Of a stretch of DNA of 19,173 nucleotides, positions 1,401-19,173 are shown piece after piece. Made by a program: the position numbers and the translations under genes. Below the pieces are notes generated by a model that made no database searches, was not told where the DNA came from, and saw only the letters and a list, made by a program, of their open reading frames with translations. The number at the start of each line of letters is the position of its first letter. Positions within the stretch are counted from its first letter, which is position 1. The stretch is from an uncultured Pseudomonadota bacterium (GTDB lineage Bacteria > SAR324 > NAC60-12), in assembly GCA_913020725.1 (NCBI GenBank), contig CAJWCD010000070.1, forward strand, positions 1-19,173, given 5' to 3'.

Positions 1401-2498
1401 TTAGGTTGGTAACAAATCAAGGGGTGCTCCGACCAAAAGTCGATGCTTCCCAGTGTAGCGCATACATGCACCCACATCAACAGTCCGGAAGGCCTTTTCA
1501 TGCAGTGTAACTTGCACCGTGTCTTCTGTACCAAATTCAAGTTCGCGCTCTCCGTCCAAAGCAATCGTTCCTGCGGATTGCCGTAAAGTAACCGGCATTC
1601 CGGCACCAAGTTTCTGCCAAGATTGCACTCCTACGGTGCGGATAAGTCCGGGAGCAATCGGAACTTGTAATGCGGTTATTGCTTGTTCCGGAACAGCCAG
1701 CGAAACATGCAAGCCCCCGGAATCATTGCGACCAATCGGTTCTAACAATCCAGCAATTGCTGACATACCAATCACTTCAGGGTCGGAAAATGTCACAAAG
1801 AGTTCACGCAGATTTTCGGTGCGCCAAAGCGCACGTGCTCCGATGTAGCGTTCGGTCGAAACCACAACGTCCACCAAGGCAATATCGCGGCGTTCTCCAC
1901 CGTTGATCTCCACATATAACACCTTGTTCGGAGCAAAAGCAATACTTTCCGGAATGCGCCCGGTGGCTGCCAGCCCGACAGCCAATCCGGTAATCGTCGG
2001 TTCACGGTGTTCTGGAAAAGCGTTGTTCGTTCCGGTAGAAATCCCGGCAATCGGCACTTGTCCGCAAACTTTGACGACCGCCCGATGAGTGCCATCACCT
2101 CCGAGTACAACAATCGCTTTGACTCCAGAATCAGCCATGGCTTGGGTTGCTGCAAAAGTATCGTCAACAGTCCCGGAAATCGGAGTGTCCGTCATTTCAA
2201 GTTCAGGAAAACGATTATCGCCGAGCTTTTGCTCACGTTGCAAGCCGCGCTTGAGCAAACTACGGATACCGCCGTTTTCCGGCATCATCAACACCCGATT
2301 CACACCACAAGCCCGCATAGCAGCCAGAACGTGCATGACGATATTTGCACGATCCGCAACCTGTAAACTGGTAGCATTGGCAATCACACGGCGAATATCC
2401 CGTGCCGAAACCGGATTGGCCACGAGGCCAACGCTTATTGTGGAAGAATTTGTGTCCAAAGATTCCTGTTTTCTGCCGAGGTTTACAGTGGATTTCAT
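1401..2498 (-). CDS. acoX: AcoX, ATP-NAD kinase-like protein of acetoin catabolism
   Basis: ANPVSARDIRR, LGGDGT, ISTGTNNAFPE and ALDGERE motifs; directly upstream of acoA as in acoXABC operons. Confidence 0.92.
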   Translation of the reverse strand: MKSTVNLGRKQESLDTNSSTISVGLVANPVSARDIRRVIANATSLQVADRANIVMHVLAAMRACGVNRVLMMPENGGIRSLLKRGLQREQKLGDNRFPELEMTDTPISGTVDDTFAATQAMADSGVKAIVVLGGDGTHRAVVKVCGQVPIAGISTGTNNAFPEHREPTITGLAVGLAATGRIPESIAFAPNKVLYVEINGGERRDIALVDVVVSTERYIGARALWRTENLRELFVTFSDPEVIGMSAIAGLLEPIGRNDSGGLHVSLAVPEQAITALQVPIAPGLIRTVGVQSWQKLGAGMPVTLRQSAGTIALDGERELEFGTEDTVQVTLHEKAFRTVDVGACMRYTGKHRLLVGAPLDLLPT

Positions 2499-2526
2499 GC
2501 TTTAAAGGCTCCCGATCCTGTTTTGA

Positions 2527-2871
2527 TTAGATGGAACTCTCCCCCAAGAAGCTCACCAAGGCAAGCAAGGTGCAGACACCGACAAGGATGGCCAGCCAGA
2601 GCCGTTTGCCGAATCCGTAGAAGACGAGATATGCGCTGCCAATCGCAATGAGGCGATAGGCGATCGGAACTTCCGCGAGCATGCCGACCGGAAAGATCAG
2701 GGTTCGGGCGACCAAGCCTCCGATGATCGCATAGGCGACACATCCGAACCATTGAAAAACTGGACTATTGGGGTTGAGCCGATGTCCGATCAACACGGCG
2801 GCATAGCGCCAGCCATAAGTGGCAAGAGCGGCAACCGCCAGCATGGTCCAAGCGTAAAGTTCCTTTTCCAT
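2527..2871 (-). CDS. azlD: AzlD-family membrane protein (small subunit of AzlCD-type exporter)
   Basis: 114 aa hydrophobic protein from ATG 2871 (MEKELYAW...ATYGWR), GGGGAG RBS; follows the azlC-like gene. The ORF-track start at 2961 overlaps azlC and is unlikely. Confidence 0.75.
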   Translation of the reverse strand: MEKELYAWTMLAVAALATYGWRYAAVLIGHRLNPNSPVFQWFGCVAYAIIGGLVARTLIFPVGMLAEVPIAYRLIAIGSAYLVFYGFGKRLWLAILVGVCTLLALVSFLGESSI

Positions 2872-2885
2872 GCGCACTCCCCTTG

Positions 2886-3668
2886 CTACCGTTTGGAAAA
2901 CTTCAGTCCGATGCCAAACGCGAACGTTCCAGCCAACAATCCGGTCACAACCATGCCCCATTCCGGTAACAGCAGATGCAATGGCGGTCCCAAGGCACAG
3001 CCCGCCACAAACGCGAAGAGGTTGCTGAACTGAGGCGTGTTGGACATGATCAACCCAAAGTAGATGGGAATCATGAACACCAGTCCTAAAGTCACGATGT
3101 GGGGCAGGATTCCGGCCAGCACATAACCCTGAAATGCCCCCAGCGTTCCGGCCACCATGCAGGTGGACGAAAAACCGATAAAATACGGGGCACGTTGCTC
3201 CGGAGGGATTTCAGGTCCGTGCTTCATGAAATCAACCCAAGTGTTGATGGAGATCAGATGCGCAAGGACATAGTGCCATTTGCGGTTGCGGGTGGCTCCG
3301 TGAAAGAGGGGCATGAGGGAGAGGGTCATCGGCAGAAAGCGGGCGTTGACGACAGCCACCGCGACAGCAATCGTGAAGACCGAAACCCCCAGGCCGAATA
3401 ACTCGACAAACACGACTTGCCCCGGAAGCGCCCAGATGATTGCTGGCGCGAGGGTTGTGATCCAAAGGCTCAGTCCGCTCTCCCGTGCCAGCGATCCGAA
3501 TCCCGTCTGCGCCGTGTAGAGGATCAAGGCCGGTGTGCCGAAGGCATTCACCACGCCCTGCCAAAACGCAGCTTTCCCGGAAGCGAAGCGAAGCCGAAAC
3601 CGAGATTCCTGAAGGGTAGATTCGGTTTTAGGAAGTTCCAGATGCTCGGTGCCGGAGGCTCGTTTCAT
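2886..3668 (-). CDS. azlC: AzlC-family membrane permease
   Basis: Multi-TM protein with GFGSLA, WALPGQV and VNARFLPMTLSL motifs. Start placed at ATG 3668, 2 nt after the nbaC stop; start uncertain. Confidence 0.82.
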   Translation of the reverse strand: MKRASGTEHLELPKTESTLQESRFRLRFASGKAAFWQGVVNAFGTPALILYTAQTGFGSLARESGLSLWITTLAPAIIWALPGQVVFVELFGLGVSVFTIAVAVAVVNARFLPMTLSLMPLFHGATRNRKWHYVLAHLISINTWVDFMKHGPEIPPEQRAPYFIGFSSTCMVAGTLGAFQGYVLAGILPHIVTLGLVFMIPIYFGLIMSNTPQFSNLFAFVAGCALGPPLHLLLPEWGMVVTGLLAGTFAFGIGLKFSKR

Positions 3669-3670
3669 CC

Positions 3671-4307
<637 letters not shown>

Positions 4308-4330
4308 AGGAACGTCCGCTTCTTATTCAG

Positions 4331-4849
4331 TCACAAATCCTGATCCACCTCCAAGGGCGCCGTGAGAGCCAGCCGCTGCAACGGTGCGCAAATGCGCTGA
4401 TTGCACGACTGAAAATGCAGTTCCCCTTTCCAATCCTGCACTCCGGACTTGGTCCCTTCCGCAATTTTGAAACGCTGAGTCAGCACAAAGGCTTGCCGAT
4501 GCACAGGCAGTTTCACTCCAAACGCTTCGTCCTCAACCCACTCCGGTTGCGTTTCCTGCAAGACGCCGACGGCGAGGTGCGTGGCCGTTGATGTCACGAT
4601 CCGTGTGGGTTCCGGACCGTCTGCGGGTGACACCAAAATCGAATAGAGGTACCATCCTGTCACCGGAAAGACACGGACCGTGAGCGTCACGATTTCGCCT
4701 ACTTTTGCGGTGTAGTGGTCGAACTCGACGTAGGTTTTTGGAGGTGGCGGGGTGGTGGCTTCAAGAAAGCCCGAAAACCCCTGACCCCAGAGCAGGGCAG
4801 GGGCCAGCAGGAAAGTTGCGGCGAGCCAGAGTCCGGAGTTCCGGAACAT
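4331..4849 (-). CDS. Exported stand-alone DsbD N-terminal (alpha) domain protein
   Basis: N-terminal signal peptide, GWYLYS strand and FQSCNQRICAP (CxxxxC) like the DsbD-alpha active site; no transmembrane or thioredoxin domain. Confidence 0.8.
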   Translation of the reverse strand: MFRNSGLWLAATFLLAPALLWGQGFSGFLEATTPPPPKTYVEFDHYTAKVGEIVTLTVRVFPVTGWYLYSILVSPADGPEPTRIVTSTATHLAVGVLQETQPEWVEDEAFGVKLPVHRQAFVLTQRFKIAEGTKSGVQDWKGELHFQSCNQRICAPLQRLALTAPLEVDQDL

Positions 4850-4852
4850 GGC

Positions 4853-6754
4853 TCAAGAGGCGCTGGGCAGCGTGAACAACGGGTTGATGACTTCGACCGT
4901 TGCGGACTTCCGGAGTTGCTGCACGCGCAGTGCCAGCATGGCTTGGTGCAGGGTTTGCTCCAGTCGTATCCGCACTTGATTGCGCTGAGTCGTGGCTTGC
5001 TCGGCGTCAAGCGTCCGACCCTTGATGAGCATCAGGTCGACACGTTCCGCAGTTTCGCTGAGGGCAAAAGGTTGCTCGACGGTGAGCCGCAGAGCAGCTT
5101 TGCGGAATTCTAGATTTTCGCCAAGTTTCGGCAGGAAACGTGTGGCGGCGGTGAACTTGGCGTTCTCCACTTCCAGTCCGTGCTGCTTTGCCAGCGTCTC
5201 CAGCGCAGCCCCAGAGTCCATGCCCTCCAGCGCCTGTTGCGCGGTTTGCTTGGCCAGCACAGAAGCTTTCTGCAAACGCACAGCGGCTGCCACTTGCTCC
5301 TTCGCCTCAAACAACGAAAGCGGCTTGGGTGTTTCGCGCTCTAGCAACTTGTAAAACAAATGCCCTTGCATGGGGTTGCGTTTCCACGCTCCAGAATCTC
5401 CGGGTTGCTTGCTCGCAAACTCAGGAACCAGCGAGAACGCGGAGCCAAAGCCCTCGACGACGGTGTTGCGTTCAAACCAGTCCGTGGACTTGAGTTCGCC
5501 GCCGTGGGTGGTAGCCAACTCGCTGGGGACGGGCGCGGCCCCCAAGCTGGAGTGATGCTCCAAAAGCTCTGCCAGCACCTTTTCGGCACGCCGATCAGCC
5601 AACTGCTCGGTGATCTCTGCCCGGACGTCCTCCAGAGCCTTCTCCGTGCCGTCCTTGCGCTCTTCCACCAGAATGAGATGCAGCCCAAAGGGCGAGGTCA
5701 CGACTTCGCTGAGCTGGCCGGATTCCAGCAAAAACGCAGCGGTTTCAAAAGCCGGAACCATCTCTCCGGGCTTGAACCAACCCAAATCACCACCCTGAGA
5801 CGCCGAAAAGTCTTCTGACAATTCCTTGGCCAGTTCCTCAAAGGACTCGCCTTGAGCGACACGTTCGCGGACGACATTGAGTTCGGCTTTGCGCTCGGCA
5901 ATCTGGTCCTCGGTCGCACCAGATTCAACCTTGAAGAGGAGGTGCCGGGCACGCACTTCCGGAGGCGTGGTGTACTGTTCGCGGTTGCGCTCGAAGTAGC
6001 GGCGCATCTCGCGTTCCTTCACTTTGGCAGTGTCCCGGAACAGATCGAGCGGTAGCACAACATACTCGATCTTGAAGCGCTCCTGTGACTGAAAATCGTT
6101 GGGGTTGGCCTCGTGGTGTCTGGCGAGTTCGGCATCACTGACCTCCACCTTGTCAAGGAATTTTTTTGGATCAAAGTACAGATACGCCACCTCCACCTGC
6201 TCATGTTCGGCAAGGTAGGCCTGTTCCACCTCGGCAGCGCTCACGAACAGTCCGGCGCCTAACAAGGCCTGTTGCTTCTGCACCAGCAAATCATGTCGAG
6301 AACTGTCTTCGTAATCGTTGAGAGGAATCCGGTTCTGGTTGAGGATGGTGGTGTAGGTTTCGTAGTCGAACTGGCCGTCTTTTTGAAAAAATGGCTGCTG
6401 GCGAATGTACTCCTGCAACTCAAGATCAGTGACCAGCAATCCTTGGGTCTCCGCTGCCTGCACGAGCAAGGCCTGATCCACCAACTGTTGCAGCACCTGA
6501 TTGCGGAGGCCAAGCTGTTCGGCAAGTTTATCCGCGCTGTCTCCAAAAGTGCGGCGCAGGTTTTCCATCTGATTCTGGTAGGCCCGTTGGAAGTCCTTGA
6601 GCAAAACATCCTGGCCGTTCACAGTGGCCAACACCTCCTTGCGCTCCCCAAAAAAGGAGCCGACCCCGAAAGAGATCACCAGGGTGACCGCAATAACGAG
6701 TAGGAGGAGCTTGAAGAAGAGGCTTTGCGAATACTCTCGCAGTTCTTGAATCAT
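4853..6754 (-). CDS. ppiD: PpiD/SurA-family membrane-anchored periplasmic chaperone and parvulin PPIase
   Basis: 633 aa; N-terminal TM anchor, SurA N domain, parvulin motifs VRARHLL, FEELAKELSED, GGDLGWF, MVPAFE, SPFGLHLI. Confidence 0.9.
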   Translation of the reverse strand: MIQELREYSQSLFFKLLLLVIAVTLVISFGVGSFFGERKEVLATVNGQDVLLKDFQRAYQNQMENLRRTFGDSADKLAEQLGLRNQVLQQLVDQALLVQAAETQGLLVTDLELQEYIRQQPFFQKDGQFDYETYTTILNQNRIPLNDYEDSSRHDLLVQKQQALLGAGLFVSAAEVEQAYLAEHEQVEVAYLYFDPKKFLDKVEVSDAELARHHEANPNDFQSQERFKIEYVVLPLDLFRDTAKVKEREMRRYFERNREQYTTPPEVRARHLLFKVESGATEDQIAERKAELNVVRERVAQGESFEELAKELSEDFSASQGGDLGWFKPGEMVPAFETAAFLLESGQLSEVVTSPFGLHLILVEERKDGTEKALEDVRAEITEQLADRRAEKVLAELLEHHSSLGAAPVPSELATTHGGELKSTDWFERNTVVEGFGSAFSLVPEFASKQPGDSGAWKRNPMQGHLFYKLLERETPKPLSLFEAKEQVAAAVRLQKASVLAKQTAQQALEGMDSGAALETLAKQHGLEVENAKFTAATRFLPKLGENLEFRKAALRLTVEQPFALSETAERVDLMLIKGRTLDAEQATTQRNQVRIRLEQTLHQAMLALRVQQLRKSATVEVINPLFTLPSAS

Positions 6755-6792
6755 AGTGAGGTTGTGATCTGATTGTTATTCCAAAATAAATC

Positions 6793-6821
6793 AGTATTAC
6801 GTTCCCACCGCAGGGGTGCAA
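6793..6821 (-). promoter_or_regulatory. Candidate sigma70 promoter for ppiD
   Basis: Minus strand TTGCAC-17 nt-AATACT in the intergenic gap. Confidence 0.35.
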
Positions 6822-6839
6822 GTCGAATGCGACTGAGGC

Positions 6840-7079
6840 TCAGGCGTGTCCGGATTCATCATCGGGATTTTCGAGCCAGATGTAATCCTGCACCTCAAAG
6901 CGGATGCGGTGCATGACGAGATAGGAGATGAAGAGTTCTAGGTCCAGCCCAGTGAACTCCAGTTTCTGTGCGCGGTTGTCCACCACCATGCTGTAAGCGT
7001 AATCGGTGCGCTGGAGCATTTGGCAGAGCATGTCCCACTCTCCGGACATCTCGATGACATGAATCACAATTTTGTACAT
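6840..7079 (-). CDS. Small hypothetical protein (79 aa)
   Basis: MYKIVIHVIEMSGEWDMLCQML...; fills the gap between rlmI and ppiD on the same strand; GGGG RBS before ATG 7079; protein-like amphipathic pattern. Confidence 0.7.
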   Translation of the reverse strand: MYKIVIHVIEMSGEWDMLCQMLQRTDYAYSMVVDNRAQKLEFTGLDLELFISYLVMHRIRFEVQDYIWLENPDDESGHA

Positions 7080-7138
7080 GAAACCCCGTTGGAAATGAAG
7101 TGAGAACCATTGGATTGAAACGAATTGGACGGGCGATG

Positions 7139-8332
7139 TCAAGTGCGGCGCACCAACAATCCCGTGAGGTATTCGCCTTCCGGAAAGTGCAGCGCTCCAG
7201 CGTGGTCCGGAGCCGGACCCAGCACCTCAATCACGCGGCCCTCCACTCCGGCATCCAACGCGGCGGAGCCGATCACCTTGCGAAAAAGCGCAGGCCCCAC
7301 ACCTGCCGAGCAGGAGCAGGTGAGCAGTAACCCTCCAGGAGCCAGCAACCGGAATGCCCAGAGGTTGATGTCCTTGTAGGCCCGCGATGCCTTTTCAGCG
7401 TGTTTGGCGGTGGGGGCAAATTTTGGAGGATCAAGGATGATGAGATCAAACGTGGCCACCGCGTCCCGAAGTCGGCGCAAATGCTCAAACACATCCGCCT
7501 CGACCAGAGTGATGTCCCGGTCCTCAAATCCGTTCATGCGGCAGTGCTGCTCCACCAGCGCCAGTGCAGGTTTCGAGGACTCAATCGCCGTCACCGACTC
7601 CGCCCCACCCTGCAACGCAGCGAGCGTGAAACCGCCGGTGTAGCAGAAGGCATCCAGAACGCGCTTTCCGGAGGCAAGGGTTCGCACCCGCTCACGGTTG
7701 TCGCGCTGGTCAAGGTACAACCCGGTTTTCTGTCCCTTTTCGACATCCACCTCCAGCGTCAACCCCTGCTCCGTGATCTGGAGGGGTTCCGGGAGCGTTC
7801 CGGAAAGCAGACCCCGACGCCGCTCCAGCCCTTCCAATTTGCGTACTTCGGCATCGGAACGTTCGTAAATCGCAGTGCATTCCGTCAGTTCGTTCAGCAG
7901 ACCCACCAAAGTGTCCCGCCACTGATCGGTTCCGACGCTTAGGCATTGCAACACCAACACCTCTCCGTACTGATCCACGATCAGCCCCGGCAGGCCATCC
8001 GCCTCGCCATGAACAAGTCGCCGTGCGTTGCTTTGGAAATCCGGAAGGACAGTCTGCCGAAACTGAAGGGCCGCCGAGAGCCGCTTCCGGAAGAACTCAT
8101 CGTCTATGGATTCATCCTCCTGCCAGCTCCAAATCCGAACACGAATCTGCGAGCTAGGGCTCCATGCCCCCCACGCGAGAAAATGACCGTCTGCGTTTTC
8201 GACCCGCACGGTGGCTCCGGGATCTGGCGAGCCAGCGACCCGCTCCACGGCTCCGGAGAAAACCCAAGGGTGTCGACGCTGGAGAGATTTCTCCCGCCCT
8301 AGTTTCAGTGTGATTTTAGAATGGTTTGTCAC
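7139..8332 (-). CDS. rlmI: RlmI-family 23S rRNA m5C methyltransferase
   Basis: PUA domain RRHPWVFSGAV, HGEADGLPGLIVD, GQKTGLYLDQRDNR, VLDAFCYTGGF, DPPKF, CSCS, EYL; GTG start overlaps the upstream TAG. Confidence 0.9.
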   Translation of the reverse strand: MTNHSKITLKLGREKSLQRRHPWVFSGAVERVAGSPDPGATVRVENADGHFLAWGAWSPSSQIRVRIWSWQEDESIDDEFFRKRLSAALQFRQTVLPDFQSNARRLVHGEADGLPGLIVDQYGEVLVLQCLSVGTDQWRDTLVGLLNELTECTAIYERSDAEVRKLEGLERRRGLLSGTLPEPLQITEQGLTLEVDVEKGQKTGLYLDQRDNRERVRTLASGKRVLDAFCYTGGFTLAALQGGAESVTAIESSKPALALVEQHCRMNGFEDRDITLVEADVFEHLRRLRDAVATFDLIILDPPKFAPTAKHAEKASRAYKDINLWAFRLLAPGGLLLTCSCSAGVGPALFRKVIGSAALDAGVEGRVIEVLGPAPDHAGALHFPEGEYLTGLLVRRT

Positions 8333-9636
8333 TATGGAAGTTTTTCGAGAGCATGACCGTTGTGGATTTCGAGGTGCAGGTCCACCCTCCGGTTCTTCAT
8401 GCGCATTGGAATGGAGGTGTTTTCTACAGTCGGTTTGAGATGGGCGCGGCCTGTGACATAAACTCGTTCCCGAGGAAAGTCGAGCTTTTCCGTGATGTAC
8501 TGGCTGGCCACAAGGGCGCGGCGGTGTGAGAGAAAGAGATTCACTGCACTGTAGTTGCCTGTGCTGTCCGTGTGCCCGATGAGCTTGAGTTGCACCTCCA
8601 GCGGCTTCAATAGCGGGATCAGACGGTTCAGCAATTCCTTATGCCCCGGAAGCAGGATGGCCTCATTGAACTTGAAGCCCTCCAAGCTGGCGGCGAGCTT
8701 AAGTGAGGTGATCTTGAACACATCCGCATGGACAAGCGCATTTTCCTGCAACACTTGCAGCACCTCGGAGACCGACGAAGCCTCGCTGATTTTGACCGGT
8801 TGGGGCTGAGAAACCGGCTCGGTTTTCTCAGCTTGTGCGACTTGAGCGGCTTGTGCTGCTTGCGCCGTCCGAGTCGCTTGTTCCGCCTGAGTGACCTGCT
8901 CGAGCAGGGCTTGCGCCTTAGACTGCAAATCGGCGATTTCGGTGTCTGCGGACTCCAACCGGTTTTGTGTGGTGCTGAAACGCTTTTCCAGCTCTGAGTG
9001 ATCACTTTCCGTTTTTGCAACCTGCTGGTTGAGGTCCGTGATCTGAGTTTGCAGAGCCGTTCGCTCGGCTTGCAAATCGGCAACCTGTTGCTCCAGTTGC
9101 TGGGTGTCCGGCGCCGTTGCCAGTTTTGCCTCCAAGCTGTTCACCTGCTCAGCGGCGCCTTGGTAGAAAATCACGCCAATGATGATGGAAGCGAGCAACA
9201 GCACTCCCCAGATCACATGCGGAATCGGGCTGTTTGATGAGGTCTCGGTCGCCGATGCCTCTTCTGGCCACGGTTGAGGTGCAGGAGGCAGTTGCTTGGG
9301 AGGTGGTGGCGGTGTCTGAGTCGGAGGCGGGGTCGGACGCGGCGGTTCGGGTTGAGCAAGCTGATCCGGATGCACAGCCTGTTCGATGGCCGGAAGTTGT
9401 CCGGCAAACCATGCGGCAGCTTTGGGGGTAAAGCGGTAATTTTCCCGGATGTGCTTGAGGGTCCGGAGTTCTGTCTCCGTGACGCGCCCGCCGTCCTTGG
9501 ACAACTCGACAAGCTCTTTCGCATCCTGTTCAGAAATGCGGCCATCCCCCTGTCCAGCAATCCGTTCATCTGCCGCTTCCAGCAACGAACGGTCGTAGCG
9601 GACTCCGTGAATCGTCTTGTAATAACTCTGTGCCAT
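8332..9636 (-). CDS. Single-pass membrane protein: unknown N-terminal domain, Pro-rich linker, TM helix, coiled coil, C-terminal OmpA/MotB-type peptidoglycan-binding domain
   Basis: C-terminal IGHTDSTG...NLFLSHRRA...KNRRVD motif; TM VIWGVLLLASIIIGVIFY; Q/E/A-rich heptads. Confidence 0.85.
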   Translation of the reverse strand: MAQSYYKTIHGVRYDRSLLEAADERIAGQGDGRISEQDAKELVELSKDGGRVTETELRTLKHIRENYRFTPKAAAWFAGQLPAIEQAVHPDQLAQPEPPRPTPPPTQTPPPPPKQLPPAPQPWPEEASATETSSNSPIPHVIWGVLLLASIIIGVIFYQGAAEQVNSLEAKLATAPDTQQLEQQVADLQAERTALQTQITDLNQQVAKTESDHSELEKRFSTTQNRLESADTEIADLQSKAQALLEQVTQAEQATRTAQAAQAAQVAQAEKTEPVSQPQPVKISEASSVSEVLQVLQENALVHADVFKITSLKLAASLEGFKFNEAILLPGHKELLNRLIPLLKPLEVQLKLIGHTDSTGNYSAVNLFLSHRRALVASQYITEKLDFPRERVYVTGRAHLKPTVENTSIPMRMKNRRVDLHLEIHNGHALEKLP

Positions 9637-9724: not shown

Positions 9725-11236
9725 TCAATAAATCGAGAAATACTCGCGCTGTTCCCAGTCGGTGACGGAGGCAAGAAAACGTGCAACTTCGGCTTCCTTG
9801 ATCGTCAGTAAATAGTCGATAAACGGAGCACCCATCGTGCTGCGGTACAACTCACTACCCCGCAACGCTATGATCGCGTCCATCAGACTTTGGGGCAATC
9901 GCGGAGCAGCTTCTTCGTAAGGAGTATCGGTGGGTTCTCCCGGATCAAGCTGTCGTTGCATCCCGTCAAGGCCCGCATGGATTTGAGAGGCAAGGTAGAG
10001 GTACGGATTCGCCGCAGGCTCGCCCACACGGTTTTCAATGCGTGTGGCCGGATCACCAAACGAACCAAGCGCCCGGATCATCGCGCCCTTGTTGTCACGC
10101 CCCCATGTCAGGCGATCCGGAGCAAGTGTGTAGGGTCGGAAGCGTTTGTAGCCGTTGATCGTTGGTGTGGTGAACACTGAAGCCGCTGGAGCATGGGCCA
10201 GCAAGCCGCCGACAAACTGCCGCCCCGCTTCCGACAAGACCTTCCCCTCGCTCGTTGGCGTGAAGGCATTGCTTGCGGGTTGAGCCGCCGCCTTTGGACG
10301 AGTCCACAGCGACTGGTGCAGGTGCCAGCCGTTGGAAAAAACGTTGGGCAATGCCGGTCGGCACATGAAAGTGGCGTGATACCCCTGACGTCGGCAAACT
10401 TGCTTAACGGCACTACGGAGCAGCACCATCGTGTCTGCAGCTTCCAGTCCGGAACTCGGATGCAGGGTCAGTTCGAACTGACTAGGACCGAACTCCACCT
10501 CGATGGTGCGCAACGGCAACCCGAGTTCCACTAGGTTGCTGCGGATCACGGAAAGGATGCCTTCGGCCTCGTCGTAGCGTTGTTCGGTGAGGTACTGGAA
10601 GCCTTGGTTGAGCAAACCAACTTCTGGAGGGGTGCCCGGCTGTCCAGCGTCTGCGAGTCCTGTTTTCGCGTCCTCAAGCGTCAGCAAAGTGAATTCGACT
10701 TCCAGCCCAGCGAGGTAATCGTAGCCCGCTGCCCTCAGCGCTTCTAAGGCTTGCCGCAGAATCCCCCGCGTGGAGAAGGGAACCGGACGTCCGTTGGTGA
10801 AGTAAATGTCGCAGAGCAGCCAACCTGATTTTGGAGACCACGGAAGCAAGCGAAACGTTGCTGGGTCCGGAACCATGATGATGTCTCCTGCTCCCGCCAT
10901 TTCAGCCATGCCGAAACCTCCTCCGGACGAGAAGACAGGAAACACTGAGCGATGCGATGTGTCCTTGGCTAGCAGGCTGGAGGTCATTGTGCACCCATTC
11001 CGGAAGCTCGATGCCAAATCCCGTGCTTCGATCACCTTGCCTCGCAACAACCCATGTTGATCAGCAAAGGACAAGCGGATGGTTTCCAGTCCGGATTCCT
11101 CGACCTTCCGCAAAACTGCTTCAGCAGCAGCAGATTCGGCCTCCCCCCAAATCTGCTGTTGTTTGACAAAATTGGAACGTCCTCCGTCTGCGATTGACGT
11201 GGGGGTAAACTGCATTTGCGGTTGGTTTGTGAGCAA
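9725..11236 (-). CDS. Glutamine synthetase-like gamma-glutamyl amide ligase (TdnQ/AtdA1-like)
   Basis: DQHGLLRGK, GLEVEF, EVEFGPSQFE, GWHLHQS, ENRVGEPAANPY, WEQREYF; the flap reads PYTLAP rather than GYEAP. Start is TTG 11236 or ATG 11215. Confidence 0.85.
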   Translation of the reverse strand: MLTNQPQMQFTPTSIADGGRSNFVKQQQIWGEAESAAAEAVLRKVEESGLETIRLSFADQHGLLRGKVIEARDLASSFRNGCTMTSSLLAKDTSHRSVFPVFSSGGGFGMAEMAGAGDIIMVPDPATFRLLPWSPKSGWLLCDIYFTNGRPVPFSTRGILRQALEALRAAGYDYLAGLEVEFTLLTLEDAKTGLADAGQPGTPPEVGLLNQGFQYLTEQRYDEAEGILSVIRSNLVELGLPLRTIEVEFGPSQFELTLHPSSGLEAADTMVLLRSAVKQVCRRQGYHATFMCRPALPNVFSNGWHLHQSLWTRPKAAAQPASNAFTPTSEGKVLSEAGRQFVGGLLAHAPAASVFTTPTINGYKRFRPYTLAPDRLTWGRDNKGAMIRALGSFGDPATRIENRVGEPAANPYLYLASQIHAGLDGMQRQLDPGEPTDTPYEEAAPRLPQSLMDAIIALRGSELYRSTMGAPFIDYLLTIKEAEVARFLASVTDWEQREYFSIY

Positions 11237-12156: not shown

Positions 12157-12288
12157 TTCTCACTCCACTTCATTGGGTCGCTTCATTGGGACTGCACGAT
12201 CCTACTGCCTGCACCCGCGCACCCGGATTTCCTAGTCGAAACCAAGCACTCCGGAGCTAGCATCGTCAGCACTGCAATCAGTTTGATA

Positions 12289-12317
12289 ATCATAGCTGAT
12301 TCCAGCGGCGCATGCAA
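12289..12317 (-). promoter_or_regulatory. Near-consensus sigma70 promoter for the SutA-like gene and moaE
   Basis: Minus strand TTGCAT-17 nt-TATGAT, preceded by an AT-rich tract. Confidence 0.65.
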
Positions 12318-12445
12318 GTCCATCCTTTGACATGTTCTCTGTGAAATCCATTCAAACGATTGATTTTTATTAGATTTTCAAAAGACCGTTAATATATCAA
12401 TCTGAAACAGTATTTTGCAAAACGATACCCGTTAAGCGTGAGAAC

Positions 12446-14011
12446 TCAGGCCATGTAGGTCGCTCGCGGGCTGCGGTCCATCGAGTCCATCATTTCGTGC
12501 GCCAGTCGTGTGATGAGTTTGGCTTTGACGTTGGCAAAGTCGGGATCGTCCCAACGATTATAGGTTTCGTCAGGATCGTTAAGGAGATCATACAACTCAC
12601 CCCACGGTTGTCCTTTGTAGAGCGTCAGGCGAAAGTCATCGGTCATCAAACTGCGGACTATAGCCGGTTCCTCAAAGCCAAGGCGAGCCAAGCCATCGTG
12701 GTATTCGATCAGGCAGGCATCACGCAGTTCGTCGCTGCCTTGCAGACAGCCGGACAAGTCCATGCCCTGAATCCCCCAGAAGGGCTTGAGTCCAGCACGG
12801 GCGATGATGCTGGGGGCAATGTCCAGCGTGGATGCAAGGGCGTTGCTTTGCCGCGCCTGCTGAGTTTCCGGATCGGACCAGATGAAAGGCACATTGGTAA
12901 TCGATTTAAACGGCAGTGCCCCCTTGAGCATCAAATTGAAATCCCCCAGATAATCTCCATGATCGGAGGTGAACACGATGACAGTGTTGTCATATTGTCC
13001 GTTGTTCTTGAGCGTCTGGATGAGTTCACCCACGGCATCATCAATCATGGATATCATGCCACAAGTCAGGGCCATCGCCTCCTGAACCTGCCGTTGTTCT
13101 GCAATGAAGACCGTCTGCGGCGTTGCAGGTGTGGCACCTTGCTTGTACAACTCCAACGCCTTCTGCATCGGTGGAATGGGATTCTGGTGGGCCTCAAACG
13201 GCAGCGGCACTTCAAAGCTGTCCGGATCGTACAGTTCCCAGTATTTCCCCGGTGGGTTGAAGGGATGGTGCGGGTCCGGGAAGGAGACAAAAGCGAAAAA
13301 CGGAGCCTCGGAGCTTTGCTGCGCATTCAGATAGTCAATGGCGCGATCGCGGATGTAAGAGGTGTGGTATAACTCTTCCGGAATCGGGGTGCGATATGCT
13401 TGCGGACAGGTGTAATCGTGCGGGAGTTCGTTGTTGCGGTCGCGGATGAAATCAATGTCCACTCCGGTTTTCCGTAACCATTGCAGGTAGTGCCCTCCGG
13501 CCAAATGCCCGTGGTTCAGCACCATGTCCACATGCTCAAAGCCGTAAAACGGCTCAGTGAATTCAAACCGCTTGTCGCCCTCATAGGTCTCCGGACGCTC
13601 CAAATCGTAAGGGTTGCCGTCCGGCCAACGGGCTTCCTTGATGGGACCAATGGTGTCAGGATTCACCCGTTCATAGGCGGGAACGGGGGTGAAGGGTTGC
13701 AGGTGCGACTTGCCGATGGCTGCAGTACGATAGCCCCCCTCACGCAAGACATCCACGAACGTCACCGTGTTGCCCGGCAACGGGTTGCCGTTGTGGCGCA
13801 ACCCATGCGTGGACGGCAGACGTCCGGTCAAGAGGCTGGCGCGGTTGGGCATGCAGATCGGACTCGCCACCTGAAAGCGCTGGAAGTTGGTTCCTCTTGC
13901 TGCGAGCGTATCCAGATGCGGAGTTTTCAGTACCTTGTGGCCATTGACGCCCAAGTAATCTTTGCGCTGCTGGTCCGTGATCAGAAAAAGAAAATTTGGT
14001 TGACGAGCCAT
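12446..14011 (-). CDS. Cys-type (formylglycine-dependent) sulfatase, probably cytoplasmic
   Basis: PNFLFLITDQ, CMPNRASLLTG (CxPxR), GYRTAAIGKSH, DPHHP, SDHGD, ELYDLxxDPxE; no signal peptide; AAGGAG RBS. Confidence 0.93.
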   Translation of the reverse strand: MARQPNFLFLITDQQRKDYLGVNGHKVLKTPHLDTLAARGTNFQRFQVASPICMPNRASLLTGRLPSTHGLRHNGNPLPGNTVTFVDVLREGGYRTAAIGKSHLQPFTPVPAYERVNPDTIGPIKEARWPDGNPYDLERPETYEGDKRFEFTEPFYGFEHVDMVLNHGHLAGGHYLQWLRKTGVDIDFIRDRNNELPHDYTCPQAYRTPIPEELYHTSYIRDRAIDYLNAQQSSEAPFFAFVSFPDPHHPFNPPGKYWELYDPDSFEVPLPFEAHQNPIPPMQKALELYKQGATPATPQTVFIAEQRQVQEAMALTCGMISMIDDAVGELIQTLKNNGQYDNTVIVFTSDHGDYLGDFNLMLKGALPFKSITNVPFIWSDPETQQARQSNALASTLDIAPSIIARAGLKPFWGIQGMDLSGCLQGSDELRDACLIEYHDGLARLGFEEPAIVRSLMTDDFRLTLYKGQPWGELYDLLNDPDETYNRWDDPDFANVKAKLITRLAHEMMDSMDRSPRATYMA

Positions 14012-14266
14012 GTGTCGCTCCTTTAGGTTAAACGGATTCTTATCGTAAGTTTAACATTGGGATTTGGTTCCAAAGCATAGCCGATTTGGGCCTTAAAAGC
14101 CAAGATATTTTGGGTCCAGATTCACGCCAAAATCCCCGCAAGGAGCGAGTGAGGCAGCGAGACACAAGCTGCTGGTGTATTCTATGATTGCCTGTTGCTG
14201 CTGTTTATGGCAAGTTCTTGGGGCTGGGGCATATGCTGAGCCTCAAACTTTATTTTGACAAAACGG

Positions 14267-15058
14267 ATGGACTCGAGCGAAACGGAAGAAGCAGCCCGTA
14301 TGATTTGGGGTGCGTGGAGTGCCGGGGAGGTGATCCCGGAACTCCCGGAGGGCTGTCGTCCGCTGAATGAGCTGGAAGGACATCAGGTGCAGGCCGCACT
14401 GACCCGGATCGCCCGACAGGACACCGAAGGCTGGAAAATCGCGGCCACCAGCAAGGCGGGTCAGCAGCACATCAACGTGAGCGGGCCGCTGGCGGGGCGG
14501 ATGTTGGCCAAGTTTGTTTGTCCGGACGGCGCTGAAGTGGACCTCTCGTCCAACCAGATGAGGGTGGCCGAGGCGGAGTTTGTGTTCCGTTTTTGGAAAA
14601 ACCTTCCGGTGCAGAAGGACCCGTACTCGCTCGCCGAGGTGCTGGAGGCGGTCGATCAACTCCAACCGGGCATCGAGATTCCCGATTCACGTTACATTGA
14701 TTTCACGCGGGTGGGCGCGGCCCAGCTTTTGGCCGATAACGCCTGCGCCAGTTGGATGATCCTAGGTCCGGAAGTAAAAGTAGCGTGGAAAGACCGCGAC
14801 TTGGCCGAGCATGAGGTCCGGGTCTTGAAAAACGGCGCTGAGGTGGCCGTGGGTAGCGGACGCAACGTGCTGGAAAGCCCCCTGAAGGCGCTGACGTGGT
14901 TGGTGAACGACCTGCGTCGTCGCGGTCAGATGCTCTACCGACACCAGTTCGTCACCACCGGCACCTGCGTGACCCCCGTGCCCATTGCCCCTGGTGATGC
15001 CTTGGTCGCAGACTTTGGCGAGTTTGGACAGGCGCAGATGACGTTCTCTAGCAATTAA
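14267..15058 (+). CDS. 2-keto-4-pentenoate hydratase / 4-oxalocrotonate decarboxylase family protein (FAH superfamily)
   Basis: GWKIAATS, EAEFVF, IEIPDSR, ADNA, VTTGT motifs; ATG 14267 preferred over TTG 14255. Confidence 0.88.
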   Translation: MDSSETEEAARMIWGAWSAGEVIPELPEGCRPLNELEGHQVQAALTRIARQDTEGWKIAATSKAGQQHINVSGPLAGRMLAKFVCPDGAEVDLSSNQMRVAEAEFVFRFWKNLPVQKDPYSLAEVLEAVDQLQPGIEIPDSRYIDFTRVGAAQLLADNACASWMILGPEVKVAWKDRDLAEHEVRVLKNGAEVAVGSGRNVLESPLKALTWLVNDLRRRGQMLYRHQFVTTGTCVTPVPIAPGDALVADFGEFGQAQMTFSSN

Positions 15059-15061
15059 AGA

Positions 15062-16093
15062 ATGGCGATGGAAAAGGAAACAAACACGGAGCAAGCAAAC
15101 GAAACCACCACCCAAACGCCCGGTCCGGTGCTCATTCCGGTGGCCAGCGGCAAGGGTGGAGTGGGCAAGACCTTCATGGTTGCAAACCTCGCAATCGCCC
15201 TCGCGCAGTTGGGCAAGCGCGTGATTGCCGCCGACCTCGATTTCGGCGGATCAAACCTCTACACCCACCTCGGCTTCGATAACCGCCATCCCGGCATTGC
15301 CCACTTCATCAGTTCCGGGGATACTCGGCTGGATGAGTTGCTGGTGAAAACACGCTTTGACGGGCTCCATTTTTTGCCCGGAGAGGTCCGGATGCCCTTC
15401 CTCGCTAATATGGGGTACTCCCACAAGCAAAAGCTGCTGCTCAACCTCAGCAAGCTTGACACCGACTATGTCCTGCTCGATCTTGGAGCTGGGACGTCTT
15501 TCACCGTGCTGGATTTCTTCAGCATCTCCACGAAGGGCATGTTGGTGACAACGCTAGATTATCCCTCGTTGATGAACATGCTCCAGTTCCTCAAGAACTT
15601 CTCCTTGCGAGTGGTGGAACGCGCCTTGCCACCAAAATCGTACCTGCGTGCTATGGTGACCGAGTACATCAACGATGCCAACACCTCGGACAAATTCACC
15701 ATTCGTGAGCTCTTCCAGCGGTTGGATGCGGAATATCCGGACGAGGCTCAGCGAGTGCAGGAACTCTGGGGAACTTTCCGTCCGCACATTGTCTTCAACC
15801 AAGGAAAACATCCGGACGAAATGATCGTGGTGGAAAACCTGCAAGAATCGCTGGCGGCCAACCTCTCCCTCAAGGTCGATTTCTTCGGCTATGTCTTTCA
15901 CGATGATGCCGTGGAAACCGCCTTGCGGGACAAACATCCTTTCTTGGACATGAGTGCCGATTCTCCTGCCGCCGAAGACCTCTATCGGCTCGCCGACCGC
16001 GTCATGCGACTCTGGGACACGCCCATCCGCAACAGCGGCCAACTGCTGCGTAGCAACACCCTCAAGATCCACACCGACCGCCAAACGGGTTAG
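15062..16093 (+). CDS. MinD/FlhG(FleN)-like P-loop ATPase
   Basis: Deviant Walker A SGKGGVGKT, DLDFGGSNL, LLDLGAGTS. Confidence 0.87.
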   Translation: MAMEKETNTEQANETTTQTPGPVLIPVASGKGGVGKTFMVANLAIALAQLGKRVIAADLDFGGSNLYTHLGFDNRHPGIAHFISSGDTRLDELLVKTRFDGLHFLPGEVRMPFLANMGYSHKQKLLLNLSKLDTDYVLLDLGAGTSFTVLDFFSISTKGMLVTTLDYPSLMNMLQFLKNFSLRVVERALPPKSYLRAMVTEYINDANTSDKFTIRELFQRLDAEYPDEAQRVQELWGTFRPHIVFNQGKHPDEMIVVENLQESLAANLSLKVDFFGYVFHDDAVETALRDKHPFLDMSADSPAAEDLYRLADRVMRLWDTPIRNSGQLLRSNTLKIHTDRQTG

Positions 16094-16126
16094 AGCATCC
16101 TCAGCAAATTAACACATTCCGGATTC

Positions 16127-16192
16127 ATGAATTCTGTGCATGAATCGAATGAAGAAATATCATTTCTTCAACGGGAAAAATGCGGATATGCT
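16127..16192 (+). promoter_or_regulatory. Two LysR-type T-N11-A boxes and a -10 element upstream of the MFS gene
   Basis: ATGAATTCTGTGCAT (16127-16141) and ATGAAGAAATATCAT (16149-16163) are 22 bp apart; TATGCT at 16187-16192 with a poor -35. Confidence 0.5.
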
Positions 16193-16222
16193 TTATTATT
16201 TCGCATGAACGGAGGGAGGGTC

Positions 16223-17519
16223 ATGAACCGCATGATTGATTCGCTGGGAATGTTGCTGTTGAGCTGCGCCTTGCTTGCGGTTGGCAATCACTTGCTTAAT
16301 GTCCTAATCCCACTACGTCTTAATGAGGCGGAGGTGGAGACCCTGTTGATCGGGGTGGTGATGTCCGCTAACGCGGTGGGGATCGCGCTGGGGTGTTTTT
16401 ACGGAAAGTTGTTGGTCATCCGGGTCGGCTATGTGCGCACTTTTGTGCTGTCCTGCACTCTTTTTACCGCCATTGTTCTGACCTATGCTCTCTTCACCAA
16501 TGCTTACGCATGGCTGGTTCTACGAGTATTAGGCGGTTTTTTCACTGCAACAGCCTATGTGGTGGTGGAAAGTTGGCTGAACTCCAGTTCCAGCGTGGAG
16601 AACCGGGGGCAGGTTTTGGGGTGGTATCTTGTGGTGCATTACGCCGCCACCGCCACCGGACAGTTGCTGGTCAATGCGGATGGCCCGAACCCTTACTTCA
16701 TCTTCATCATTGCCGCGCTGGCGATTGCGCTTGCCAGCGCCCCAGTGGCTTACAGCACCGCACCGGTTCCGGAATCGCAGGAAACCGAATTCCTCTCCTT
16801 CTCTGAACTCTTCCGCATTGCGCCTGTGGGTGTGGCCGGGGTGATCGCCGCAGGTTTCAGTTTCGGCTCGGTTCAGGCCATGACCCCAATCTACGGGGAA
16901 GCACTGGGTTGGTCGGTCGCCCAGATTTCCTTCTTCATGGCCACCGTGACAGGCGGGGCGCTCCTGTTCCAGTATCCGCTGGGGCGTTTGTCCGATTCCT
17001 GGGACCGCCGCAAAATACTCGGAGTTGTACAGGTGTTAGGGATTACCACACTGGTTTGGATGATCTGGGAGCCTGAAATGTCTGGAGTTTCATGAAAGGT
17101 TTTGGTGCTGGCGGTGTTGCTGGGAGGTGTGATTGGCAGTTCCTACCCACTCAGCAGTGCCGTGGTGTTCGACTGGCTGCGACCCTCCCAGATGGTTGCG
17201 GCCACAGGCAAGCTGATCTTCACCTACGCCATCGGGGCCATCACCGGACCTGCCCTCATCGCCTTGGTGATGGAAGGCATCGGCACCACCGGATTTCCAC
17301 TCTTCCTGATTGTGGTCCACTCAAGCTTGCTGCTCTACATCCTCTACCGGGTGCAAGTCCGGAAAGCCTTGCCCGTGGAAGTGCAAGAGGATTTTGTGCT
17401 GGTGCCAAGAATGCCGCCCGGCTCCCCTCGATCCCCGCACCGACCCGGATTACGATGCCAACGACCCCGGCCCCCTGCTCGACATCGACTCCGATTATCT
17501 AACGGTGCCGTCCTCCTAA
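16223..17519 (+). pseudogene. YcaD-like MFS transporter, disrupted
   Basis: ATG 16223 after GGAGGGAGG; VGYVRTF, VVESWLN, RGQVLGWY, QYPLGRLSDSWDRRK. In-frame TGA at 17093-17095 is followed by continuing TM helices in the same frame, and the expected LDPR tail is in another frame after about 17420. Confidence 0.75.
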
Positions 17520-17540
17520 TAACTGAAAACTGATAACTGA
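17520..17540 (+). repeat. Three tandem heptamers (T/A)AACTGA
   Basis: TAACTGA AAACTGA TAACTGA between the MFS stop and the carboxylase ATG. Confidence 0.7.
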
Positions 17541-17544
17541 ACCA

Positions 17545-19173
17545 ATGCTTGAATCGGTCCTGATTGCCAATCGCGGGGAAATCGCCCGCCGCATCCTCCG
17601 CACCTGCCGCAAGCTCGGAGTCCGGACCATTGCGGTCTATTCCGAGGCGGATGCCAACGCGCTGCATGTTGAAGAGGCGGATGCTGCGTTTCAGCTAGGT
17701 GGGCTGACTCCGGCAGAATCCTACCTGCGCCTCGACAAGCTGCTGGACGTCGCCAAGCAATCCGGAGCGCAGTCGGTGCATCCGGGCTACGGGTTTCTCT
17801 CGGAAAACGCGGAATTTTCCAAGGCGTGTGTAGAGGCCGGGTTGGTGTTCATCGGGCCGACTCCGGAGGTGATCGCAGCGCTGGGCCGCAAGGACCAGGC
17901 CAAGCGCATCATGAGCGAGGCCGGGGTTCCGGTGGTTCCGGGTTATCACGAAGACGCACAGGAACCCGAAGCCTTGCTCGCTGAGGCCGAGCGCATCGGC
18001 TGGCCCATCTTGATCAAGGCGGTCGCGGGCGGCGGCGGCAAGGGTATGCGCGTGGTTACGTCTGCCGAGGCATTTGCAGATGCCCTGCAAGCAGCACAGC
18101 GCGAAGGTGCCGCCGCGTTTGGTGACGGACGGGTGCTGCTGGAACGCTATGTTGCCCATCCCCGGCACATCGAAGTGCAAATTCTCGCGGATCAGCACGG
18201 CAACACCCTGCACCTCTTCGAGCGTGAATGCTCCTTGCAGCGACGGCAGCAGAAGGTCTGGGAGGAAGCCCCCTCGGTTTTTGTGACCGACGACCTGCGC
18301 GAGCGCATCACTGCCGCCGCCGTGGCTGCCGGAAAGGCGGTCGGCTACACCAACGCCGGCACCGTGGAGTTTCTCGTTGGACCCGACCGCGAGTTCCATT
18401 TCATGGAAATGAACACGCGCCTGCAAGTCGAGCATCCTGTCACGGAACTGATCACCGGACTCGATCTCGTCGAGTGGCAACTCCGCATCGCCGACGGAGA
18501 GAAACTTCCGATCACGCAGGAGCAGGTGGGATGTTGTGGACACGCCATCGAAGTGCGGCTCTACGCGGAGCAACCCGAACAGGGTTTCCTGCCCAGCACC
18601 GGAATCTTGGAGCGACTGGAGTTCCCAGAAACCGAGGCCCGCATCGAATCCGGAGTGCGCGAGGGTGCTGCGGTTTCCGTCCACTACGACCCCATGCTGG
18701 CAAAGCTGATCGTGCTGGGAAGAAACCGTCCGGACGCCCTGCGGAAACTACGGGGGGCACTTCAGCACTGTGGGATTGCCGGACTCCACACGAACCTGCG
18801 TTTTCTGGAACAACTCGCACGGCATCCGGTCGTGGTCGCGGGTGCGGCGGACACGCTGTTTATCGAATCCCGGCTTGACGAACTGCTGAATTCGGGTTCT
18901 GGAGCGGTGGTTCATTGGTGCGCGGCTCTCCACCTGCTTCGTCGCCGCGCCGCACACGGAATGCGGAGCAAGCTCCAAGCCGCCGTCTCGCCGTGGGAGC
19001 GGTTCGACAACTGGCGCTTGTCCGGAACGGAAGCAGAAACCATTGAGTTGCAAACCATGTCCGGAGAAGTCTCGCTTGCCGTGAAGACCAGCGCACGGCA
19101 GGTTTCCGGTGGGGGCGGGGTTCAAACCCGCCCCCACCTCCCCCTGTGGTTCACGGTGGTTCAGAATGACGAA
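17545..19173 (+). CDS. Biotin carboxylase (alpha) subunit of an acyl-CoA carboxylase, methylcrotonyl/geranyl-CoA type; runs off the right edge
   Basis: Not in the ORF track. Manual translation: MLESVLIANRGEIARR, HPGYGFLSEN, KAVAGGGGKGMR, ERECSLQRRQQK, EMNTRLQVEHPVTE, YDPMLAKLI, then SPWERFDNWR; open to the window end. Confidence 0.93.
   Translation, partial: MLESVLIANRGEIARRILRTCRKLGVRTIAVYSEADANALHVEEADAAFQLGGLTPAESYLRLDKLLDVAKQSGAQSVHPGYGFLSENAEFSKACVEAGLVFIGPTPEVIAALGRKDQAKRIMSEAGVPVVPGYHEDAQEPEALLAEAERIGWPILIKAVAGGGGKGMRVVTSAEAFADALQAAQREGAAAFGDGRVLLERYVAHPRHIEVQILADQHGNTLHLFERECSLQRRQQKVWEEAPSVFVTDDLRERITAAAVAAGKAVGYTNAGTVEFLVGPDREFHFMEMNTRLQVEHPVTELITGLDLVEWQLRIADGEKLPITQEQVGCCGHAIEVRLYAEQPEQGFLPSTGILERLEFPETEARIESGVREGAAVSVHYDPMLAKLIVLGRNRPDALRKLRGALQHCGIAGLHTNLRFLEQLARHPVVVAGAADTLFIESRLDELLNSGSGAVVHWCAALHLLRRRAAHGMRSKLQAAVSPWERFDNWRLSGTEAETIELQTMSGEVSLAVKTSARQVSGGGGVQTRPHLPLWFTVVQNDE
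19108..19138. repeat. REP-like GC-rich palindrome inside the carboxylase CDS
   Basis: GGTGGGGGCGGG-GTTCAAA-CCCGCCCCCACC; perfect 12-bp arms. Confidence 0.75.

Follow-up and report, generated by a model that had tools for sequence, protein, structure and literature searches.

The palindromic hexamer TCCGGA is highly iterated along contig CAJWCD010000070.1 (GenBank assembly GCA_913020725.1), a stretch of 19,173 nucleotides from an uncultured bacterium of the SAR324 lineage, and throughout the genome of this bacterium (designated G000) its spacing follows the turn of the DNA helix. The window, as the whole stretch is called here (contig C70 of G000, GC 55.9%), carries ordinary metabolic and housekeeping genes, with a Pfam match for 16 of the 18 tested. 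Thus, it samples a genome-wide property and is no special locus. Exact search finds 48 copies between 1484 and 19065, whereas 200 dinucleotide-preserving shuffles of the window gave a mean of 5.96 (standard deviation 2.43, maximum 14) and never reached 48. The original prediction, made from the window alone, had counted about 48 copies by hand against about 6 expected, in genes on both strands and in intergenic DNA. The number is exact, and every coordinate that it cited is a true site; genes on the minus strand contain 31 copies and genes on the plus strand 14, the other three being outside genes, and all three reading frames are used on each strand. The near-cognate words CCCGGA and TCCGGG occur 29 times in the window. 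Near-identical contigs span most of the window in all four marine metagenome runs examined, which rules out an assembly artefact, and the stretch is present in 19 of 23 listed runs, nearly all of them seawater or marine metagenomes. Two sites are said below to lie on the same face when separated by whole turns of a 10.5-bp helix, and on opposite faces when offset by half a turn; in the window, each of the five pairs with a spacing of 9-70 bp belongs to the opposite-face half. The sites and their closer groups are as follows, no strand being assigned to any of them.

Dispersed TCCGGA, first part: 1484, 1687, 1948, 3199, 4292, 4442, 4611, 4832, 4840, 4909, 5958, 6849
Dispersed TCCGGA, second part: 7041, 7179, 7206, 7667, 7799, 8040, 8086, 8252, 9365, 9462, 10116, 10448
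Dispersed TCCGGA, third part: 10866, 10922, 10999, 11090, 12250, 12867, 13221, 13377, 13590, 14521, 14767, 15387
Dispersed TCCGGA, fourth part: 15736, 15811, 16118, 16768, 17358, 17621, 17761, 17862, 18649, 18729, 19021, 19060
4292..4297: intergenic TCCGGA, with a 3-hydroxyanthranilate dioxygenase gene on one side and a DsbD-N gene on the other
12250..12255: intergenic TCCGGA, with a moaE gene on one side and a sulfatase gene on the other
16118..16123: intergenic TCCGGA, with a MinD/ParA-type ATPase gene on one side and a major facilitator superfamily (MFS) gene on the other
4832..4914: spacings of 8 bp and 69 bp (about 6.5 turns), spanning the DsbD-N/PpiD gene boundary
7179..7211: pair at 27 bp (about 2.5 turns, opposite faces), in an S-adenosylmethionine methyltransferase gene (7139-8332)
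8040..8091: pair at 46 bp, in the opposite-face half of the 10.5-bp cycle
10866..11095: four sites with spacings of 56, 77 and 91 bp, in a glutamine-synthetase-like gene
19021..19065: pair at 39 bp, in the opposite-face half, in a biotin carboxylase gene

The genome G000 (3.45 Mb in 204 contigs, the longest 92.6 kb; GC 56.8%, completeness 93.3%) holds 7,675 TCCGGA sites, or 2.23 per kb, and no hexamer is commoner. The density ranges from 0.52 to 3.29 per kb among the 204 contigs, and the window, with 2.50 per kb, is typical of the genome. At Markov order 2 the word ranks highest among the 64 palindromic hexamers, most of the GC-rich ones being found at 0.08-0.25 of expectation (CCGCGG 0.08, GCCGGC 0.19, CCCGGG 0.25; ACCGGT stands at 0.27). 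A self-trained script called 2,708 genes, of which the 2,384 best-scoring were used for codon shuffles in which the amino-acid sequence and the codon usage of each gene are fixed. Coding sites number 6,401 against 1,875 expected, a 3.41-fold enrichment that extends to each frame (3.70, 1.88 and 4.25). By frame, 33%, 17% and 48% of protein-allowed positions are filled with TCCGGA, where codon usage alone predicts 8-10%. It is also enriched in the ribosomal-protein cluster (23 against 7.6 expected) and is the top hexamer of intergenic DNA (117 kb); the 44 tRNAs (3.4 kb) contain none. The proposal that the window carries a lineage-wide, DNA-level signal like that of the highly iterated palindromes (HIP) of cyanobacteria is borne out by these counts.

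It could be supposed that the iteration is a by-product of codon usage, of demand for Ser-Gly and Pro-Glu or Pro-Asp pairs, and of avoidance of other palindromes or of CCWGG. Indeed, Pro-Glu ranks first (1.67) and Ser-Gly fourth (1.48) among the dipeptides of G000, alike in the related genera designated g2 and g12, Pro-Asp stands at 1.42, and CCWGG is at 0.21 of expectation. However, in relatives that lack the iteration (trait-negative; 132,000 residues) Pro-Glu is at 1.07 and Ser-Gly at 0.97 (Pro-Asp, at 1.28, differs little), so that the dipeptide bias is a result of the TCCGGA signal and not its cause. Genus g2 has the trait with CCWGG depletion much weaker or none (0.74-1.06). The enrichment at fixed amino acids and codon usage in all frames, the intergenic rank and a spacing rule that persists across frames (see below) also contradict this explanation, including the single-frame or codon-pair origin that the original prediction had considered, and it is excluded. 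The signal is real, non-coding in origin and helically ruled. As a separate observation, CCWGG is the most depleted pentamer of G000 (0.21 at maximal Markov order, 0.12-0.19 against codon shuffles; nine copies in the window). This depletion is common to genus g1, and a Dcm-type enzyme was not found in G000.

The build of the word explains a result that at first sight speaks for such a by-product. The ratio of observed to expected TCCGGA in G000 shrinks as the Markov order rises, being 3.37 at order 2, 2.43 at order 3 and 1.00 at maximal order. Thus, in the control for pentamer frequency proposed with the original prediction, the enrichment is gone. Given CCGG, however, a 5′ T and a 3′ A occur independently of each other (odds ratio 0.99), and the ratio of 1.00 therefore reflects independent ends and not absence of signal, which remains. 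Among pentamers CCGGA/TCCGG ranks first (1.56, z 117), the hexamer accounts for 51% of each pentamer's count, and CCGG alone reaches merely 1.14-fold against codon shuffles. The unit is composed of two additive, independent half-sites, TCCGG and CCGGA. At 4-fold degenerate positions, all three alternative bases are disfavoured at each of the six positions of the word. The mildest penalties apply to the central transition giving TCTGGA/TCCAGA (ln odds 0.71 and 0.28) and to G at position 6 (0.88), and central transversions are disfavoured with ln odds of 1.4-2.6. Directly next to the word, T is preferred 1.85-fold, so that the best context is TTCCGGAA. In highly iterated palindromes, one-off variants are concentrated at the outer positions; for each consensus site of G000 there are 0.44 CCCGGA and 0.30 GCCGGA, changed at such a position, but also 0.29 TGCGGA and 0.25 TCTGGA, changed further in, the last enriched 1.5-fold against codon shuffles.

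Distances between neighbouring sites in G000 obey the pitch of the helix. A damped cosine fitted to the pair distances has a period of 10.53±0.05 bp, a half-turn phase of 5.4±0.3 and a decay of 51±8 bp, with peaks near 27, 37, 48, 59 and 69 bp. Against 17.1 pairs expected at each distance, none is observed at 20, 22 and 31 bp, and one each at 13 and 43 bp. Between 9 and 70 bp there are 227 same-face and 606 opposite-face pairs, the same-face half comprising 30 of the 62 distances; five control palindromes gave 21/23, 24/34, 12/15, 10/19 and 15/14. Among 202 frequent hexamers TCCGGA shows the highest phasing amplitude, followed by four words that overlap it or are variants of it. The bias is seen between sites in the same frame (91 same-face, 222 opposite-face), across frames (93 and 295) and in pairs outside single called genes (43 and 89), and a helix repeat in the encoded protein is thus not the source. 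Repulsion between sites is helical only and confined to distances under about 70 bp. In terms of occupancy, isolated codon-allowed positions bear TCCGGA in 4,117 of 11,833 cases (34.8%) and those with an opposite-face neighbour in 413 of 1,066 (38.7%), but those with a same-face neighbour two to four turns away (19-23, 30-33 or 40-44 bp) in only 79 of 921 (8.6%), the neutral level being 8.3%; positions whose only neighbours lie at different distances do not enter this three-way count.

Cross-phasing provides a specificity profile that is independent of word abundance. The value is -0.65 for TCCGGA itself, -0.41 for CCCGGA/TCCGGG, -0.14 for TCTGGA, -0.14 for ACCGGA and -0.10 for GCCGGA, and it is within noise for the remaining five single-base variants and for CCGG words with neither T nor A. 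Since the rhythm has the B-DNA pitch and is confined to TCCGGA and its near-cognates, something must contact one face of double-stranded DNA at these sites. Among the causes that the original prediction had listed, a DNA-binding site is therefore strongly supported. Plain DNA mechanics or a topoisomerase might be thought sufficient: TCCGGA could be a bendable site, or a gate site for gyrase or a short ParC-type enzyme, with additive or cancelling bends, or wrapped flanks, as the origin of the phasing. The period equals the B-DNA pitch, a reach of 50-100 bp is on the order of gyrase wrapping, the pyrimidine-purine step at the centre is tolerated (TCTGGA/TCCAGA), and G000 encodes GyrA and a ParC-like frame of 657 amino acids. 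Still, CCGG words without T or A show no phasing, and the AA/TT rhythm near sites mostly vanishes, falling to about 0.01 once CCGG words are masked. Both enzymes are also present in trait-negative genus g3, and a sign reversal between genera, described below, is not expected from plain mechanics. This explanation is very unlikely. Among the other family genomes searched, 22 of 24 have the short ParC-type subunit (about 650 amino acids; contig C1 of G000, 57594-59552, plus strand; also L244), which was not found in the 16 genomes of a second family, f2.

The trait is distributed over several genera with GC contents of 43-63%. At least one site per kb is found in 17 of the 45 family genomes, all of which belong to genera g1, g2, g12 and g5, and all nine genomes of g3 are at 0.13-0.24 sites per kb. 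Outside the family none of 40 genomes reaches one site per kb, the highest being about 0.7 (from rounded genome sizes). Within g12, three genomes that are 51-57% complete (G044, G051 and G052) lack the trait: they have 0.12-0.16 sites per kb, the remaining 15 have 0.4-2.1, and the three amount to a natural loss experiment. A tree of PpiD, made by a quick method with an arbitrary root, neither supported nor refuted a single origin of the trait. In 252 kb of alignment between G000 and its relative G002 (89% identity), both genomes carry TCCGGA at 424 places, only G000 at 208 and only G002 at 165. Conservation in relatives, which the original prediction had proposed as a check, is clear at the 4-fold positions inside sites, 698 of 800 being retained in G002 against a background of 0.782 (z 6.2). 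Turnover leads largely to near-cognates, since 192 of 289 one-step changes yield words of the CCCGGA or TCTGGA type. Two observations on other genomes may be added here. In G017 (genus g7), where 6.7 TCCGGA pairs would be expected at 25-28 bp, there are 36, with no excess at 35-38 bp, which may be due to a repeat element. Five genomes of other families (G027, G032, G080, G081 and G084) are nearly purged of the word (15-40 per genome), which suggests that it is restricted there.

The spacing rule is specific to the genus. Pairs were counted over whole genomes at 25-28, 30-33 and 35-38 bp as ratios to random placement. In g1 the ratios are 0.94, 0.14 and 1.28, alike in all three genomes; in g12 they are 0.90, 3.80 and 0.85 (18 genomes, 13 of them individually significant), and in g5 1.06, 2.49 and 1.17. 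Three-turn pairs number 20 against 142 expected in g1 and 1072 against 282 expected in g12. Thus, same-face neighbours are avoided in g1 and favoured in g12. In g2 the three-turn ratio is mixed (G014 0.41, G003 1.03, G020 1.15). Phases fitted on stretches of five genomes are 5.7 for G000, 6.7±0.7 for G014, 9.1±0.4 for G020, 10.0±0.7 for G003 and 10.4±0.3 for G019. The genomes are kin and not independent, so that the comparison of genera amounts to a handful of contrasts. Density does not predict phase in 23 genomes (rho -0.23, p 0.28).

The spacing also bears on the idea that TCCGGA is a DNA uptake or recombination tag accumulating by molecular drive, as was proposed for HIP1 of cyanobacteria and is known for the uptake signal and DNA uptake sequences (USS/DUS). 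HIP1 is reportedly linked to transformation. A ComEC match is present in G000 (E 1.7e-47), and long stretches free of sites are frequently low-GC, foreign-looking DNA. However, USS/DUS words are 9-10 bp long, non-palindromic and spaced more evenly than random, whereas TCCGGA is a palindrome of 6-8 bp and not an oriented tag. Even spacing at the kilobase scale is not seen in G000 (coefficient of variation of the gaps, 1.06), the only repulsion being the helical one at short range. The idea has little probability.

A mutation and repair ratchet directed by methylation, of the type put forward by Elhai, is a further alternative. In it, an enzyme would mark CCGG or TCCGGA, and biased mismatch repair would fix the half-sites stepwise; the bound enzyme would then block new same-face sites in g1 or promote them in g12. 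The independence of the half-sites is what a two-step process should give, and MutS and MutL motifs occur in G000. A candidate enzyme exists, since the search for an orphan methyltransferase, as proposed with the original prediction, found one: P0001, an amino-methyltransferase (contig C49, 18035-19339, minus strand), is the sole DNA-methyltransferase-like gene found in G000 and is itself the PF02086 match. Motif I is followed by an SPPY/NPPY motif IV, as in N4-cytosine and N6-adenine enzymes, and the neighbours are housekeeping genes. On the other hand, its matches in PDB include tRNA m2G enzymes besides DNA N4-cytosine enzymes, it resembles rRNA methyltransferases too, and its relatives occur in 36 of 41 genomes, trait-negative g3 and family f2 included. 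Two further methyltransferase motif hits in G000 were set aside as rRNA methyltransferases. In G000 (93.3% complete) neither C5 methyltransferase PF00145 nor Vsr PF03852 was matched; control matches were obtained in 9 and 3 of 14 genomes, respectively. PF00145 was also rejected as a cause on its distribution, being present in 14 of 41 relatives without following the trait. Mrr (PF04471) was not found in G000; EcoRII-C gave no match there, nor in any of the 14 control genomes, and is hence uninformative. The option of a methyltransferase coupled to Vsr, raised in the original prediction, is not supported in view of these absences and of TCTGGA being the least disfavoured variant and not the most drained. 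Transversion variants are disfavoured as strongly as transitions, or more, which also speaks against the ratchet. Elhai's model, set out in section 3.4 of PMC4390886, has a range of about 1 kb and requires a methylated GC step, which TCCGGA lacks, and the available part of that section does not predict a 10.5-bp rule. Taken together, the ratchet is unlikely. As for P0001 itself (also L096), it is conserved through the SAR324 order and has relatives in Myxococcota, and some of its homologues of the g1, g2 and g12-like kind carry long basic N-terminal tails.

The reading that we prefer, with a probability of roughly 60%, is weak selection for binding by an abundant, putative complex on double-stranded DNA. 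From the sequence patterns we infer a protein as the cause, selection in preference to biased mutation, a geometry in which one complex meets two sites, and a role in chromosome organisation. TCCGGA, best as TTCCGGAA, would be the preferred site, and CCCGGA/TCCGGG and TCTGGA/TCCAGA weaker ones. The reader would be two-fold symmetric and most likely an organiser of the chromosome. Each site would bring a small benefit, with a scaled advantage of about 1.7 (ln odds from 34.8% against 9.0%), and this would leave about one third of the protein-allowed positions occupied and sites free to turn over. The complex would extend along one face of the helix across some 50-100 bp. In g1, a second site on that face may be covered or engaged by the same complex and add no benefit, and its frequency would then stay neutral. 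In g12, binding may be strengthened by another same-face site at a distance of three turns, which would therefore be favoured. If single sites were bound more weakly, this geometry would lead to the preference for same-face pairs seen in g12.

Several results weigh against this reading. A biased repair process would likewise yield conservation and enrichment. The conservation excess in a second relative, G001, is not significant (76/123 against 0.561, z 1.3), and retention of the whole hexamer in G002 (424/632, 0.67) is inside the range of six control words (0.55-0.72). Retention in the control range, together with turnover to near-cognates, indicates that individual sites matter little. Retention by neighbour class (17/30, 44/72 and 275/405) shows no clear difference. 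Same-face occupancy by frame is 9%, 3% and 18% against a neutral 5-12%, and the neutral level holds only as an average. In addition, none of the candidate readers examined tracks the trait. HU/IHF is present in all 41 genomes regardless of it, GyrA and the short ParC are shared with g3 as noted above, and the histone fold PF00808 was not found in G000. A ribbon-helix-helix (RHH)-like gene (contig C1 of G000, 54785-55057, minus strand; also L403:1788-2057), two genes before parC and present in 38 of 45 family genomes, was likewise rejected, being found in eight of nine trait-negative g3 genomes. The first 55 residues of its product are nearly invariant. Its C-terminal helix is absent in all 11 g12 copies shown and present in g1, g2, g3, g5, g7 and g8, and its lack in g12 suggestively matches the phase change. 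However, g5 has the helix and yet follows the same-face rule, and the protein is hardly probable as the reader of TCCGGA. The single PF01402 match in G000 looks like an RHH protein of the antitoxin type, and a list of 76 small basic proteins of G000 is mostly made up of ribosomal ones, with no obvious reader among them.

Known systems resemble TCCGGA in part. Very-short-patch repair by Dcm and Vsr likewise biases word counts across the genome around a CC..GG core, but these enzymes were not found in G000, where CCWGG is depleted, not enriched, and TCTGGA is not drained. Proteins of the RHH or winged-helix type read helically phased operator or iteron arrays at origins or promoters. Such arrays share with g12 short palindromic cores at whole turns; TCCGGA, in contrast, occurs as thousands of single intragenic sites, and same-face pairs are avoided in g1. 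Iteron-like TCCGGA arrays with spacings of 10, 11, 21 and 32 bp were seen inside phage replication-initiator genes (L267:1723-1808, L268:1840-1945, L275:3001-3076 and L276:3001-3114). Three sites at 31-32 bp occur in 14 viral loci, four of them within replication-initiator genes. This lead was dropped: control palindromes gave 12 and 21 loci, a spacing of 36-37 bp gave 90, and Lin1244_N was not found in G000.

The closest parallel is HIP1 (GCGATCGC). In the available parts of PMC5861425 and PMC4390886, HIP1 is likewise a dispersed palindrome with more than one copy per kb, in all frames and in intergenic DNA, clade-wide and conserved beyond codon constraint. It is a different word in a different phylum, and its core CGATCG is depleted in G000 (0.34 of expectation). 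On composition, TCCGGA is enriched about 8-fold, against 15- to 300-fold for HIP1 in the HIP1 texts as available. The periodicity given for HIP1 is 18-94 kb, and the word 'helical' is absent from the available main text (PMC5861425); the period of TCCGGA is 10.5 bp with a genus-specific sign. Alternate HIPs of single cyanobacteria (GGCGCC, rCCGGy, GCsGC) are also hexameric palindromes with raised half-site variants, and rCCGGy has a CCGG core, but in the available part of PMC4390886 they are sporadic, contain a GC step and come with a matching methyltransferase. In G000 the rCCGGy palindromes are depleted (GCCGGC and ACCGGT, above), and the trait spans several genera. TCCGGA is thus HIP-like in abundance, dispersion and coding independence, and it is not HIP1. 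No description of its iteration in SAR324 was found in the literature searched, most subscription journals and the supplements of both HIP papers lying outside it; the terms TCCGGA, SAR324 and helical are all absent from the available part of PMC13756078.

Some features of the locus and of contig C1 stand apart from these questions. In the first 2500 nucleotides of the window, the dehydrogenase E1 and NAD-kinase-like genes have a lower GC content (49-50%), and the first TCCGGA comes only at 1484; positions 1-1386 match G002 at only 68% identity, and this part is possibly a recent acquisition. The MFS transporter (16127-17533, plus strand) occupies two separate frames (16127-17095 and 17102-17533), and contigs from all four metagenome runs examined have five additional bases after 17426; the split copy may be a variant or an assembly error. 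On contig C1 of G000, a serA-like gene (56349-57591, plus strand) likewise consists of two overlapping frames, owing to a frameshift or an assembly error.

The iteration of HIP1 has been debated for some thirty years, and a repair by-product, chromosome structure and gene transfer have been proposed for it. TCCGGA is a second, independent iterated-palindrome system, from a lineage abundant in the ocean, and the spacing of its sites offers a physical handle on this debate. The 10.5-bp rule places the cause on one face of double-stranded DNA with a reach of 50-100 bp, the specificity profile was obtained without experiment, and the pair-distance test is directly applicable to HIP1. Natural controls are provided by genera with opposite rules, by a genus that lacks the trait and by three trait-negative genomes within g12. 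The dipeptide bias demonstrates that a signal at the DNA level alters protein sequence genome-wide. Beyond this, we tentatively suggest, with the odds somewhat against it, that the SAR324 chromosome may be organised as a lattice addressed by sequence, of a kind not described before. An abundant complex would read thousands of intragenic TCCGGA sites, with enough strength to reshape the dipeptides of the proteome, and the geometry of neighbours would be written in the genome and would have switched between genera, from same-face cooperation in g12 to same-face exclusion in g1.

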